This document shows, one piece after another, positions 50,082-57,776 of a stretch of DNA of 64,000 nt (the first letter of the stretch is position 1; the number at the start of each line of letters is the position of its first letter). The position numbers were made by a program, and so were the translations under genes. Origin of the DNA: a virus; the IMG/VR virus record IMGVR_UViG_3300007513_002727, positions 1 through 64,000 of that record. One strand, 5' to 3'. Below the pieces are notes generated by a model that did no database searches, was not told the origin of the DNA, and was given only the letters and a program-made list of their open reading frames with translations.

Positions 50082-50140
50082 AATAATTTAATGTAACATA
50101 AGATTGACTTTTTGTCAACTGTATGCTTAAATATTAATAA

Positions 50141-50433
50141 GTTTGTTGACTAATAATTAATAAGCGGACAAGACGAGAGTTCGAATCTCTCCACCTCCAC
50201 CAAATTTTGGTGGCTTATGTAATCCCTTTCGGGGGTGTTATTGGAAATCGATTGACGTCTAAACTTGTTACGAGAACTTGGACATGGTACTGACCTAACA
50301 GGCCGTTTTTAAATGCAAACAAAAGAGCATTAGGATTTGCTGACTTTACAGTTGGTATGTCTGAATTGAGATTAGCGGCGTAATAACTGTTTAATTTCTG
50401 GGGTTTGGCCCACCTCGCAACAGAACGGGCCAC
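50141..50433 (+). ncRNA. ssrA: two-piece (circularly permuted) tmRNA, alphaproteobacterial type
   Basis: The acceptor piece with T arm GAGAG-TTCGAAT-CTCTC and CACCTCC-A-CCA (ends 50202) precedes the coding piece starting GGGGGTG (50231, G3.U70 pair). Tag ORF 50315-50383 is ANKRALGFADFTVGMSELRLAA. The 3' element is TGGCCCACCT..CAACAGAA.GGGCCA. The 5' boundary is approximate. Confidence 0.92.
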
Positions 50434-50515
50434 TTCATTTAAAACAACATATAACTTATACCGTCATATAATTGATGCAACTATTGATTTAAATAATTGC
50501 GTCAAGGGGGAGGGT

Positions 50516-51374: not shown

Positions 51375-52460
51375 ATGAAAAGAGAAAAACGTAGACTTTT
51401 GGATATTCTACCAGAAGTGAAAACAGCACTAGCAACCTCAATCAAAGGTTGGGATGGTATTCTAAAAGGTGCTAAAAATAAACTTAAAAAAGATTTAACA
51501 GCAGGTAAGAATTTCCCACAAGGTGTACAAGCCATAGACATATCTAAAATATGGATAGACTATTCTGTACAAAGAGACATTAAACATAAACACGTAGCTA
51601 AAATTATAGAAAGATTTGATCCTCGTATAGCGATGCCAAGTGCAGGTGTTAAATTATTAAATGGTGCTGAAGATGATAGAATTTTTGTTTATGACGGGCA
51701 ACATAGATTAATGGTATGTGCTTTGTTAGATATTAAAGAAGTACAGGTATGTGTTATTGAAACATCAGAAAAAACATTTCCAGCATACGCATTTGAAGTG
51801 TGTAATGATTCGGGTATAGCAAAAGCAAGTAAAGAAGATATACACAGAACATTATTATATAGATGGGAACACGGTACTGAAGAAGAACGTGAAGATCCTA
51901 GAGTTAGAAAAGCACACAAAATACAAACTGTATTTGATGAATGTAGTATAGACTTAGAAGGACAACGTATTCGTAAAAGCGATAAACTACGAGGTTCACA
52001 AGCACACTTCTTTTCACACTTTCAATATGCACACTTTGGTTATGATGAGATTGGAATGCTAGAAATGAAAAAAGTTCTTAACGCAATTAAAACTGTTTAT
52101 GCAGATGAGGAAGAAATTGATCAAGGTTTATACATAGGACTTGTGGATATGATTAGAATTGCAAAAAGTGAACAAGAATTAGAAGACTTGCCCGAGGGTT
52201 GGATGGAAGTTGTATTAAAAGTTATTAAAAGAGCAACTGGTAATGCTAAAAACTTTACACAATGTACTCGAGAACAATGGCAACATCATAACGGAACTTC
52301 AATGGAAGGTCCTAAAGGTATGTGTAATACAATGAGAGAAGTATATAAAAAATATCACGATAAAGAAGAATATATTAATGTTCCACATCACCAAAATTGT
52401 AAAGTGGGAATTATAGATGATAACATCTGTGCAAGATTTGAGGCTATGTTAAATGGTTGA
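51375..52460 (+). CDS. ParB/sulfiredoxin-like DGQHR-domain protein
   Basis: IDYSVQRDI, FVYDGQHRL; own promoter TTGACT...TATAAT at about 51268-51295. Confidence 0.75.
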   Translation: MKREKRRLLDILPEVKTALATSIKGWDGILKGAKNKLKKDLTAGKNFPQGVQAIDISKIWIDYSVQRDIKHKHVAKIIERFDPRIAMPSAGVKLLNGAEDDRIFVYDGQHRLMVCALLDIKEVQVCVIETSEKTFPAYAFEVCNDSGIAKASKEDIHRTLLYRWEHGTEEEREDPRVRKAHKIQTVFDECSIDLEGQRIRKSDKLRGSQAHFFSHFQYAHFGYDEIGMLEMKKVLNAIKTVYADEEEIDQGLYIGLVDMIRIAKSEQELEDLPEGWMEVVLKVIKRATGNAKNFTQCTREQWQHHNGTSMEGPKGMCNTMREVYKKYHDKEEYINVPHHQNCKVGIIDDNICARFEAMLNG

Positions 52461-53031
52461 TGTTAATAAACTTAAATGGCTGGGTGAACACTTTCAATCA
52501 TTACCTAGATTTCGTAAAAAAAACAACATCTTATCTAACACCGCAAGTTTAAAATTTCTTAAAACAGAAGTTGAAAGACTTAAAGATATGTTAAGACAAA
52601 AAAGATCAAGTGACGAACGTTATGAGATTAGTAAAATATTAAATAGAACCGTTCGTAGAACACAAGATATTTGCCAAAACATTTATAGTATTCATTATTA
52701 CGAAGAATTTGAACAAGACAAACGTAGAGTAAAAGAACACGTCATACCACAAAATTTATTAATTGATGCATATTTAGAAGGACATATAACATTTGAAACT
52801 ATGTTGGGTATGCCGTTAGTAAATTTAAGCGAAGCAAGTGATCAACTAATTACAGGTAAAGGACTAGCTAAAGTAAATTCAAATTGGGTATATCCTTTTA
52901 GAAGATATAAAATAGCAGGCATACAAGAAAACATTTATACTGCGAGTGGTGTTAAAATTGATTTCGAAAATTGGAGCCTTACTGATCACTTTAAACTATA
53001 CAAAGAGATAGAACTATATGGAAAATTATAA
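52453..53031 (+). CDS. hypothetical protein with EHxxP (HNH-like) motif
   Basis: KEHVIPQN, PFRRY..AGI; overlaps the upstream gene. Confidence 0.5.
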   Translation: MVDVNKLKWLGEHFQSLPRFRKKNNILSNTASLKFLKTEVERLKDMLRQKRSSDERYEISKILNRTVRRTQDICQNIYSIHYYEEFEQDKRRVKEHVIPQNLLIDAYLEGHITFETMLGMPLVNLSEASDQLITGKGLAKVNSNWVYPFRRYKIAGIQENIYTASGVKIDFENWSLTDHFKLYKEIELYGKL

Positions 53032-54342: not shown

Positions 54343-54550
54343 TTGTTTTTATAAGGTTACTGTAACCACGTGTGTTCCTGAGTCTATAAATTTCTTTGAA
54401 GATCAAGAAATATATCATTGGGGATATTATCCATATCATTTGGTAATCAAAGGAGTAAAAGAACTTTACAAAGAGGGTGCTGATGCTGTAGAATTAGAAA
54501 TGATAACACAAGAAGAATTTGACAAAATTATAAAACCATATACACCATGA
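54332..54550 (+). CDS. hypothetical protein
   Basis: Coupled ORF. Confidence 0.6.
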   Translation: MKFDCFYKVTVTTCVPESINFFEDQEIYHWGYYPYHLVIKGVKELYKEGADAVELEMITQEEFDKIIKPYTP

Positions 54551-54756
54551 AAGAATTTAAATTAAACATTAAAATAGGTGACAAAGTAGAAGTAGGACGA
54601 TTTCGTAATGTTACCACTAAAATTAAAGCAATCGAACTTGACAATAACGGGCAACCTGTTATAATAACAAATAAAGGTGCAAAGAAATTATTAAGTTGCA
54701 GATTGGTAAAACTATATAAAACATCAAAACAACTACTAATGGAAAAAAAGAAATGA
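54547..54756 (+). CDS. small SH3-like protein, paralog of 34201-34440
   Basis: IGDKVEVGRF...IELDNNGQP. Confidence 0.7.
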   Translation: MKEFKLNIKIGDKVEVGRFRNVTTKIKAIELDNNGQPVIITNKGAKKLLSCRLVKLYKTSKQLLMEKKK

Positions 54757-55475
54757 AACATTTAGGACACAAAGGAATAGAGGCAAACGATACACTACCA
54801 AAATATTTTGGTACAAATAATAGATTAATGACAACACTACAAAAGGTTGCTGAAAAAGATACTGCTGAATATTTTTACAATTTAGAAATACAACCAGAAT
54901 TTATTCCAAGTGCAGAGCCAGAAACATTTGCAACACTAGATGCAAGTAAGGCAAAATGCAGAGAAGAAGCATGGAAACGTGCAAACGTCGATGGGTTTGT
55001 TGCAGAGTATGGTATAGACAAAGGTAAAAGTTTTATACAATTATGTGAACTTAACAAAGATAATGAAACATTTGGCTTTGATGGATTTTTAGGATTGCCA
55101 GATGGTGTATGGCCGGGCAACATGATTCATCAAGGTGCGTTTAATTATGATGGACAAATTCCGTTTGATATCCCAAGCAATGGTACTATTACTAATGGTT
55201 GGTTTAATAAAACATTACCAAACTTTAATTATAAACAACCAGTTGCAAAATTTTTACATATTGATTGTGATGTATATTCAAGTACTGTAGACGTATTCAA
55301 TACCTTGCAAGGCAAAATTGTTCCAGGTACTGTAATTGTATTCGACGACTATTGTAATCATCCAAATTGGAGACAAGGTGAATACAAGGCTTGGCAAGAA
55401 TTTAGATCCAACAATAATATCCAATACAAATATCTTTATGTTGCTGGTATGGCCGTAGCATTAATTGTTATCTAA
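54753..55475 (+). CDS. TylF/MycF-like class I O-methyltransferase
   Basis: AEYGIDKG.S, FGFDGF.GLP, GWF..TL, LHIDCDVY.ST, IVFDDY. Confidence 0.85.
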   Translation: MKHLGHKGIEANDTLPKYFGTNNRLMTTLQKVAEKDTAEYFYNLEIQPEFIPSAEPETFATLDASKAKCREEAWKRANVDGFVAEYGIDKGKSFIQLCELNKDNETFGFDGFLGLPDGVWPGNMIHQGAFNYDGQIPFDIPSNGTITNGWFNKTLPNFNYKQPVAKFLHIDCDVYSSTVDVFNTLQGKIVPGTVIVFDDYCNHPNWRQGEYKAWQEFRSNNNIQYKYLYVAGMAVALIVI

Positions 55476-55637
55476 GTGACACTCACACACGGTTTAATAT
55501 TAGGAATTGGTGGCACAATACTTACTTTAGTTGGCTTTGGTATTGCTTTTTATACTGCTACGGCACAACAAAAAAAGAAACTACAAGATGAAGAAACTCA
55601 AAGAAAACATAAAAAATTGTATGGTAATTTTGGTTGA
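55476..55637 (+). CDS. small single-TM protein (not in the ORF track)
   Basis: GTG start; GLILGIGGTILTLVGFGIAFY followed by a basic tail. Confidence 0.5.
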   Translation: MTLTHGLILGIGGTILTLVGFGIAFYTATAQQKKKLQDEETQRKHKKLYGNFG

Positions 55638-55662
55638 CAAAATACCAAAAATATAATATAAT
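55634..55662 (+). promoter_or_regulatory. consensus sigma70 promoter
   Basis: TTGACA (55634)-17-TATAAT (55657). Confidence 0.85.
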
Positions 55663-55669
55663 GGTAACT

Positions 55670-55828
55670 ATGCAAAAGCGAGCATCGGGTTTACAAGTGC
55701 GTAGAAACTCATTTGTCAACTTCAACCATATCACCCCCTTTAGGGTAATGCATTTTAGAAGCAGAGAGGCTGGTGACAGGCTTACTGCGAGACTGCGTAA
55801 GAACTTGTTCCCGATGTTAGGCTTTTAG
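55670..55828 (+). ncRNA. structured rod-like ncRNA, candidate 6S-like RNA
   Basis: End-to-end pairing AAAAGC/GCTTTT, AGCATCGGG/CCCGATGTT, ACAAGT/ACTTGT, GCGTAG/CTGCGT, CTC/GAG, then an internal bubble and TCACC/GGTGA. GC-rich compared with the flanks. Confidence 0.55.
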
Positions 55829-55829
55829 T

Positions 55830-56315
55830 ATGAGAAAAAAATCACAAGAGTTATTAGATAATTTAAACAAAATTACTGCTAAACCAAAAATGACATTTGA
55901 AGAAAATGTTGAATCTTATACTAATAGACATTATCCTAGCACTATACACAAATTACCAACAAGTTATGACAAAGCAAAACGTTATAAAGACGAAGAAGGT
56001 GAAGAATATATTAAAATTGATAGAGTATATGGAGGACTATACGAGTGCCAACTTAGACAAAAAGATGGTACAATATATAAAGGTAAACTCTATAATAAAA
56101 AAAGATTAATTAAAAATGAGGTAGATGGTAAAAACTTTTATTCACAATGTCATATGACGTCTGATGGACGTTGGTTTGATAACTGTGGATTACCAATTGA
56201 ACCACCAAAACAAGTAGATATTGAACCTGAAGCAAAACCAGACGAAGACGACATTAAAGAACAAAAAAGAATAGCACGTGAAAGAGAACAACGAATAATA
56301 GCAGGATTAAAATGA
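55830..56315 (+). CDS. hypothetical protein
   Basis: 161 aa; T.DGRWFDNCGLP. Confidence 0.7.
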   Translation: MRKKSQELLDNLNKITAKPKMTFEENVESYTNRHYPSTIHKLPTSYDKAKRYKDEEGEEYIKIDRVYGGLYECQLRQKDGTIYKGKLYNKKRLIKNEVDGKNFYSQCHMTSDGRWFDNCGLPIEPPKQVDIEPEAKPDEDDIKEQKRIAREREQRIIAGLK

Positions 56316-56623
56316 GTTGTTTGTCTTTACTTTTTGCCTTATCAATGCACATTGGATTAGAAGGAAATTATAATAACTACCATCCACACGCACGATGTCA
56401 AAAAGATGCTTTAATTTCAGGAGTTTATTATAATAGTGAAGATAATGTATCTGCTTACATTGGTCTTGAACATAACGGATTTGAAGTTGGATTAGTTACT
56501 GGTTACAGCCAAGATGTAGTTCCTATGTTTAGATATAAAAAGAATAATTGGTTTATTGCTCCTGGATATGAAATTGACGGAACTCATGGAATTGTAATTG
56601 GATGGGCGTTTAAGTTAAAATGA
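56312..56623 (+). CDS. putative small beta-barrel outer-membrane protein
   Basis: Signal-like N-terminus, GVYYNS, GLVTGY, alternating beta pattern at the C-terminus. Confidence 0.5.
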   Translation: MSCLSLLFALSMHIGLEGNYNNYHPHARCQKDALISGVYYNSEDNVSAYIGLEHNGFEVGLVTGYSQDVVPMFRYKKNNWFIAPGYEIDGTHGIVIGWAFKLK

Positions 56624-56772
56624 ATTCATTAGCAAAACTTTTTGAACCCAGCAAAGACCGTTTAATTGGTAATGCTAAACGTATGATGGACAATGCTAAA
56701 AATCCTTGGTTTGAACAATATTGGACAAAAGTTTATGTTCATCTTTGTAAACAATACAAAAAACTCAACTAA
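56620..56772 (+). CDS. small hypothetical protein (not in the ORF track)
   Basis: 50 aa; NAKRMMDNAKNPWFEQYW. Confidence 0.55.
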   Translation: MNSLAKLFEPSKDRLIGNAKRMMDNAKNPWFEQYWTKVYVHLCKQYKKLN

Positions 56773-56780
56773 ATACCTTT

Positions 56781-56880
56781 GTAACGCCACTGTTCTAGTG
56801 ACGTCGGCAAACAAATGACCCGTTTGTACCGAAAGGGAAGACCATAGAAAAGGGCCGGGCCGTACGCGAATATCTCGCCA
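56781..56880 (+). ncRNA. candidate structured leader RNA
   Basis: GC-rich intergenic stretch after TAAATA (56770); hairpins ACG.CACT/AGTG.CGT, CGGCAAAC/GTTTG..CCG and GCGA/TCGC. Confidence 0.4.
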
Positions 56881-56963
56881 ACAATCAAATATAGTGTAGT
56901 ATGGAGAACAATATTATTGACTCCTATTGCTGATCTATGCTACACTAAAAATGGAGATATACA

Positions 56964-57776
56964 ATGGAAGTCAAAAGAAAATTAAAACCAAGCGAAATAA
57001 ATGCCAACTATAGTGCATTACCAAAAGATATTAATTCATACATCGATGAGAGTGTGATGGCCAAACAGCCAGAGATAGATCTTTGGGAGTTCATGCAGAC
57101 ACGCCCAGATCAACTGTATGAAGAATGGGCATACGAAGTAGGATCTGACACAACGACAAAATATGAGGCAAAAGCATTTACAAATCTAAACCTTAACGAA
57201 GATGATTTTTTTCAATTCATGAAAGAAAATAAACACACTTGTCAAAAAAAATACTACGAACGGAGACCATATCACAATGGTAGAAGTGAACTAACTGAAA
57301 ACTTTCCAATGAAATGTGGATACAATGCTAGAAACACAGTTGAATATAATTGGGGACTTTATGGCAATAGCAATGAACAAGTAAAAGAGTTACTAGGTAG
57401 TCGTAAAGTATGGGAAGATAAAATTGGAATAGATTACGACACTGCATTAATAAGATTATTAGCATATATGCCAGGAATGATTCTGCCATGGCACGTTGAT
57501 AACTTAGGCAACTGGTGTAGAAACTATAAACATTTGAATCCAAATATTGATACTAGAATGTGTGACTTGGGTCCTATCAAAAGATATCTTGTAATGATTA
57601 CTGATTGGCATTGGGGACACGTAATACAATTTGAAAATAGTTACTTTCCTAATTACAAAAGCGGTGATGTATTTGATTTACCTATACCACGTCCACACTG
57701 CTCTGCTAATATGGGTATGAGAATAAAACTAACTTGTAGTATAAGTGGTGCTCAAACAAAAGATTATACAAAATGA
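56964..57776 (+). CDS. 2OG-Fe(II)/cupin oxygenase (Asp/Asn-hydroxylase-like)
   Basis: PG...WHVD, WHWGH, GD, HCSAN....K. Confidence 0.7.
   Translation: MEVKRKLKPSEINANYSALPKDINSYIDESVMAKQPEIDLWEFMQTRPDQLYEEWAYEVGSDTTTKYEAKAFTNLNLNEDDFFQFMKENKHTCQKKYYERRPYHNGRSELTENFPMKCGYNARNTVEYNWGLYGNSNEQVKELLGSRKVWEDKIGIDYDTALIRLLAYMPGMILPWHVDNLGNWCRNYKHLNPNIDTRMCDLGPIKRYLVMITDWHWGHVIQFENSYFPNYKSGDVFDLPIPRPHCSANMGMRIKLTCSISGAQTKDYTK

Follow-up and report, generated by a model that had tools for sequence, protein, structure and literature searches.

Genes and promoter at the locus

The window, by which we mean the whole stretch of DNA analysed, is 64,000 nt long (positions 1 to 64,000 of the IMG/VR virus record IMGVR_UViG_3300007513_002727), and positions below are counted in it unless another locus is named. 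At 55638–55829 an intergenic region separates a 53-aa ORF (55476–55637) from a 161-aa ORF on the plus strand (55830–56315), which we call the DGRWFDNCG gene after a motif of its product. For the segment 55634–55828 the original prediction had proposed a perfect TTGACA-17-TATAAT promoter followed by a 6S-like RNA, a decoy for RNA polymerase. The promoter is indeed there. Its -35 hexamer TTGACA (55634–55639), overlapped by the stop codon of the 53-aa ORF, and its -10 hexamer TATAAT (55657–55662), both on the plus strand, are spaced by 17 nt, and this sigma70-type promoter (55634–55662) matches the consensus at 12 of 12 positions. Two matches to TTGAC-N18-TATAAT lie in the 64-kb window, where 0.13 would be expected, and of 65 distinct homologous loci 59 have a TTGACn-16/17-TATAAT promoter at the same relative place, at a fixed distance from the RNA. 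Since this distance is fixed, the outer stem of the RNA (P1) should begin about 5 nt past the predicted transcript start. The TGGTAA motifs said to flank the promoter are both present (55622–55627 and 55662–55667), but only the second copy is kept in relatives; GGTAA after the -10 hexamer is conserved in the close group.

The promoter spacer is also conserved, in the window (55630–55650) and in L021, L026, L027, L033, L039 and L054, where it reads GGTTGAC, then 5–7 nt, then AACCAAA. Across the -35 box GGTT is repeated in inverted form as AACC; this repeat could represent an operator, or else a promoter element specific to the lineage.

The predicted RNA (55669–55826, plus strand) is marked out by its fold and by a covariance-model match, both described below. 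Its 5′ end (∼55669–55670) is inferred from the promoter, and its 3′ limit is taken as the end of the outer helix. Metatranscriptome contigs over 55632–55746, retrieved as Logan contigs from small shares of the runs, belong to 88–95% relatives; they include the -35 box and mark neither the start nor the end of the transcript. No terminator-like site, that is a compact G+C-rich hairpin with a U-run, was found in 54500–57500. The GCTTTT noted by the original prediction just before the ATG does exist, but instead of serving as the U-tract of a terminator this GCUUUU is the outer arm of P1 and lies within an A-U helix. P1 is followed by a U-run in some members, namely the window, L023 and L230, but this run is not conserved in relatives.

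Fold of the RNA

The minimum-energy fold of 55665–55828 has a free energy of –52.7 kcal/mol (z = –3.5), and none of 200 shuffled sequences folds as well; for the opposite strand z is –2.1. The region, ∼160 nt after the promoter, has a G+C content of 42–46% against ∼30% in its flanks. The ends were expected to pair through helices of 6, 9, 6, 6 and 3 bp, and these are exactly the helices of the minimum-energy fold: AAAAGC/GCUUUU (6 bp, 55674–55679 with 55821–55826), a 9-bp helix (55681–55689 with 55810–55818), two helices of 6 bp (55693–55698 with 55803–55808, and 55699–55704 with 55793–55798) and finally CUC/GAG (3 bp, 55708–55710 with 55789–55791). The first two helices make up P1, with its 5′ arm at 55674–55689, its 3′ arm at 55810–55826, ending 3 nt ahead of the ATG, and a conserved one-by-two internal loop. 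The other three (6 + 6 + 3 bp) make up P2, whose 5′ arm (55693–55710) ends in the CUC that closes the junction and whose 3′ arm (55789–55808) starts with GAG, abutting the hairpin P4. P1 and P2 together form a long interrupted stem of ∼25 bp that pairs the two ends of the RNA.

Above this stem, where an unpaired bubble and an apical domain had been proposed, lies a three-way junction. The core of the RNA is this junction, closed by CUC/GAG and carrying two hairpins, P3 and P4; all its elements are on the plus strand. On the 5′ side, the single strand J2/3 (55711–55732) has a conserved start, AUUUG, with A-Y-U-U-(G)-Y-A-A as consensus and the first A invariant. P3 (55733–55746) consists of a 4-bp stem and a loop of 5–6 nt that ends in an invariant UA. 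The A/U-rich single strand J3/4 (55747–55760) is moderately conserved, with (G/U)AUG followed by an A-rich part, and leads to P4 (55761–55788), a hairpin of variable length that is stacked on GCGAG and has the loop GUGACAG in the window; in many relatives a GNRA tetraloop closes a short P4 stem. On the 3′ side of the junction no nucleotide separates P4 from the GAG of P2. In an alignment of 49 representatives the letters that never vary are U-C-A plus a U (5′ side) and C-G-A (3′ side), together with the UA of the P3 loop.

When every pair of columns was examined for further pairings, pseudoknots included, only group-level correlations emerged and nothing convincing. Within the conserved single strand a boxA-like (NusB/NusE) site was considered, as were a kink-turn or C/D-like GAUGA in J3/4, a hammerhead-like core and a likeness to the L11-binding region of 23S rRNA; all were dropped, as none is conserved across groups.

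Conservation and covariation

Two covariance models were used to follow the RNA in other genomes. Model R1, built from six sequences, has a single match in the window (55663–55822, 141 bits); elsewhere it detects the RNA, full-length and once per locus, immediately upstream of the gene in 20 viral and 55 metagenome loci. Model R2 describes the core alone and finds one copy each in 68 of 100 sources, in every case directly 5′ of the gene; these are the window, 29 IMG/VR loci and 38 of 40 selected marine metagenome loci, L182 and L222 being the only two of the 40 without the RNA. According to the same search, short-form homologues of the gene lack it too.

Base pairing is maintained through extensive sequence change, and the covariation in related phages that the original prediction had called for is found. 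In 28 relatives of the window's type, whose alignment was fitted to the covariance model, 97.3% of cells are paired, and both partners have changed in 20 of 31 pairs; in P1, compensatory changes are seen at 10 of 11 pairs. None of 500 shuffles reaches the observed value, and when partners are slid by 1–3 columns they pair in 26–40%. RNAalifold run on a plain MAFFT alignment of six sequences still gives 11 compensatory pairs, and single-sequence folds of divergent members recover the same architecture. At two positions of P3, compared in 67 sequences, the pairs are AU 39, CG 22 and GC 5 at the one, and CG 33, GC 17 and AU 15 at the other. The CUC/GAG helix becomes GUC/GAC, GUC/GAU or UUC/GAA in other groups, its closing pair changing from C-G to G-C, G-U or U-A. 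The P4 pairs adjoining GAG are a conserved G-C and C-G, and a third pair that is G-C, A-U or C-G.

The same comparison bears on a 64-aa ORF that is called mechanically at 55634–55828 on the plus strand, and whose conservation would have made the helices incidental to a real small gene. Its frame is open in the window and its nearest relatives, but only there: the more distant homologues of the RNA at L023, L035, L033, L015, L171, L027 and L166 have 2–10 stops in it, and where the frame is broken, double substitutions preserve the base pairing. The ORF also starts at a TTG inside the -35 hexamer and has no match in Pfam or PHROGs. We do not regard it as a gene; that it could be one is next to impossible.

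Nucleotide searches with the RNA and with the surrounding 5.5 kb against 50,697 phage records gave no match, and among the Rfam covariance models no family matches the RNA in the window (E ≤ 10) or in 20 diverse homologous loci (E ≤ 1). The RNA is real, structured, about 155 bases long and conserved in many uncultured marine phages. We consider it a previously undescribed family. It is new by its absence from Rfam 15, and may figure among the 10,006 unnamed candidates of the structured-RNA catalogue of IMG/VR, which includes the gp20 and gp32 leaders (Fremin, Bhatt and Kyrpides 2023, PMC10690425). These candidates resemble it in coming from the same data source and in being covarying motifs ≤25 nt upstream of a phage gene; the motif is not among the examples discussed in the section consulted.

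The downstream gene and its linkage to the RNA

The 161-aa protein carries the invariant motif D-G-R-W-F-D-N-x-G (DGRWFDNCG in the window). Its relatives come from IMG/VR and marine metagenomes, with the homologous RNA ahead of them, and the family comprises at least 1137 sequence clusters in public marine metagenomes, all annotated as hypothetical; it was found in only two binned genomes. Neither Pfam nor PHROGs holds a family for the protein, and tblastn against the 50,697 phage records finds no match. PDB sequence profiles, Foldseek and VIA-align, searched for a relative or a fold, gave none, and the ESM Atlas no usable match. The structure model of the protein has a mean pLDDT of 79.6; its best structural match, to Rhs repeats, reaches a Z of 2.8, which is not meaningful, and no recognisable RNA-binding fold was found in it.

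The linkage of RNA and gene is close. In two scans of the whole of IMG/VR for patterns of the core, every true copy lay beside the DGRWFDNCG gene and none elsewhere. Between core and ATG there are mostly 27–30 nt, a nearly constant spacing; the start codon follows the RNA within about 5–25 nt, and in most members the 3′ arm of P1 ends 3–12 nt before it, inside the footprint of the ribosome. No conserved Shine-Dalgarno was found in or after P1. In one group the 3′ arm of P1 contains GGAGAG, which was rejected as such a site, as it varies and lies 11–13 nt from the ATG.

Six of the 65 loci form a subgroup in which there is no promoter: a short form of the RNA, with a closing stem of 6–10 bp and the same junction core, is packed into the space that separates the stop codon of an infA-like gene from the start of a gene of the same DGRWFDNCG family. 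A promoterless RNA in this position suits a polycistronic cis element better than a separate RNA gene. The upstream gene is a phage-encoded 72-aa homologue of IF-1 (infA), seen directly before the short RNA at L028:2686-2904 and in L005, L045, L047 and L053, and its stop codon lies in the closing stem of the RNA or ≤6 nt from it.

At L175 the RNA is directly followed by an inserted gene of another kind, whose stop codon overlaps the start codon of the usual gene (TAATG), so that control by a leader would still reach the latter via translational coupling. The insert (L175:719-1204) is a 161-aa gene resembling the paralogous oxygenase-like genes of the window.

Three homologous genes, those of L222, L182 and L038, have no RNA at all; as these include close homologues, the RNA must be dispensable for the gene. 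In L222 (Ga0255776_10018509) the gene shows 63% identity, and a promoter of the same type stands ∼40 nt before the gene start and ends 9 nt before the ATG. The mRNA of L222 would be nearly leaderless, and the RNA behaves as a module that some loci have between promoter and start codon and others lack.

The surroundings of the RNA differ between loci. In many relatives, L002–L006 and L175 among them, its promoter directly follows a gene that has an EHVIPQN motif and is partnered with a ParB-like DGQHR gene; in the window (52460–53031) six other genes stand between that gene and the promoter.

Comparison with known RNAs

6S RNAs are rods of 150–200 nt with a central bubble that sequester the sigma70 holoenzyme, and one encoded by a phage would, to our knowledge, have been without precedent. 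The RNA described here shares with 6S (SsrS, RF00013) the length of ∼150–200 nt, ends paired in a long interrupted stem and synthesis by the sigma70 holoenzyme, and 6S too can be co-transcribed with a downstream gene. The differences lie in the core, which in 6S is a two-stranded bubble between two long helices and here a three-way junction with two covarying hairpins, in the linkage to one phage gene family, with one subgroup promoterless, and in the covariance models. The search against Rfam 6S by Infernal, which had been suggested as a check, found no 6S match at E ≤ 10 in the window or at E ≤ 1 in the 20 relatives: cmscan at E ≤ 10 on 55400–56000 returned five rows at chance level, none of them 6S, and at the Rfam gathering scores the whole window contains a tmRNA and a tRNA only. 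As P4 abuts P2, an unpaired 3′ strand is missing and no two-stranded bubble can mimic an open promoter. Judged by every sequence and structure criterion examined, the RNA is not 6S.

The original prediction therefore stands in its recognition of a non-coding structured RNA from a consensus sigma70-type promoter and is not supported in reading 55634–55828 as a 6S-like decoy, having no match in Rfam, no bubble, no terminator and a promoterless subgroup in operons against it. Among the alternatives that it listed, a structured 5′ UTR fits best. An antitoxin-type RNA does not agree with the sequence: no tandem repeats were detected in 55400–56400 (minimum score 30), hence no direct repeats of the ToxI type, and the RNA is single-copy in the window.

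The put RNA of phage HK022 is another RNA that acts on RNA polymerase. It works in cis and consists of two simple stem-loops, ∼70 nt in all, upstream of terminators. Like put, our RNA lies just behind a strong early phage promoter and would be the first RNA made; in contrast to it, our RNA has a three-way junction and no terminators downstream (54500–57500).

Closer in position are the autoregulatory leaders that bind their own gene product, those of T4 gene 32 and gene 43 and of ribosomal proteins such as L10 or S15. They are structured elements of 50–150 nt that immediately precede the start codon of one particular gene, are kept with this gene through deep divergence and occur also between cistrons. 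The RNA is homologous to none of them, the ribosomal leaders being included in Rfam. The likeness to three-way-junction and orphan riboswitches consists in covarying helices, invariant junction nucleotides, a variable stem with a GNRA loop and location in a 5′ UTR; unlike them, the RNA has a very long closing stem, no expression platform that we could find and no candidate ligand.

Function of the RNA

We favour, though with no better than an even chance of being right, a new family of cis-acting 5′ leader RNAs coupled to the downstream gene. Since there is no terminator between the stem and the start codon, the RNA would be made as the 5′ leader of the mRNA: transcription from the host sigma70-type promoter would yield it as the 5′ end of the DGRWFDNCG message, on which it would act in cis. 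So much covariation together with invariant junction nucleotides nearly always means a specific binding partner, and the junction may well be the binding site for a factor. The leaders of T4 gene 32 and of ribosomal protein genes are autoregulated by their own product. By analogy, the factor would most likely be the protein that the linked gene encodes; failing that, it could be a small molecule or a protein of the host. Occupancy of the site might set the use of the start codon, which is within the ribosome footprint of P1, or the lifetime of the mRNA.

Several properties point to such a leader. The structure itself is real, judging from the z-score of the fold and the covarying helices, and it lies directly 5′ of the gene in the 29 IMG/VR and 38 of 40 selected metagenome loci, in most loci behind a promoter at fixed distance, with a near-constant spacing between core and ATG and no terminator between them. 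The infA-linked subgroup keeps the junction core where the promoter is absent, and the TAATG overlap at L175 leaves the gene within reach of the leader. It should be noted, however, that no expression platform was found (neither a terminator nor a conserved Shine-Dalgarno), that close homologues of the gene do without the RNA, that the 161-aa protein has no recognisable RNA-binding fold and that the closing stem is far longer than a typical riboswitch P1 and resembles those of stable RNAs. This last feature brings in the main rival to the leader reading, a stable non-coding RNA freed from the transcript by processing in P1–P2 or by partial termination, which would act in trans, possibly as an RNP with the 161-aa protein. 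Like 6S and Y RNAs it has paired ends, beginning ∼5 nt past the predicted start; it is G+C-rich in an A+T-rich genome, stands behind a consensus promoter and in three members has a U-run after P1; the strict linkage to the gene also fits a partnership of RNA and protein. E. coli 6S is processed from a longer transcript, so the missing terminator is not decisive. We nevertheless find a stable RNA rather unlikely, for the U-runs are not conserved, no intrinsic terminator is present and the infA-linked subgroup has only a short closing stem and no promoter of its own.

If the partner were a small molecule, the three-way junction would be an aptamer that reports the state of the host to an early phage gene. 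The invariant junction nucleotides, the variable and often GNRA-capped P4 and the covarying helices are typical of aptamers, and the constant place in the 5′ UTR agrees with a riboswitch. A P1–P2 stem of ∼25 bp is too stable to switch, though, no terminator, anti-terminator or platform sequestering a Shine-Dalgarno was found, no Rfam riboswitch matches, and the gene, being without known function, gives no hint of a ligand, all of which makes a riboswitch improbable. Even less probable, to the point that we would be surprised to see it borne out, is an action on RNA polymerase, either in trans as a 6S-like decoy of the holoenzyme or in cis as a put-like RNA that modifies the transcribing enzyme. 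The length of ∼155 nt, the paired ends and the sigma70-type early promoter do recall 6S, and at L175 the RNA has stayed next to the promoter despite the inserted gene, which is the position held by put-like elements. But besides the negative 6S searches and the missing 3′ single strand, the apical hairpins are short (4–12 bp), the RNA goes with a single gene family, and it is also seen within an operon, where it has no promoter. Beyond the reading as a passive leader, a broader proposal, which we consider less likely than not, is that of a functional RNA that works with the DGRWFDNCG protein or senses for it, whether as an early RNP, as a riboswitch for a new ligand or as a polymerase-binding RNA in cis or in trans.

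Besides correcting the 6S reading of 55634–55828, the analysis provides a defined handle on an abundant and wholly uncharacterised early function of uncultured ocean phages. The RNA is also a clean candidate for studies of riboswitches or of RNA–protein interaction.

Other features of the window

A second G+C-rich intergenic stretch (45% against ∼30%) lies at 56773–56963, before the cluster of oxygenase-like genes, and is a candidate structured RNA in its own right; it matches neither R1 nor R2. The tmRNA of the window, at 50083–50434, is a permuted (two-piece) molecule of the alphaproteobacterial type (RF04321, 80.8 bits; RF01849, 59.2 bits), which hints at the lineage of the phage's host.
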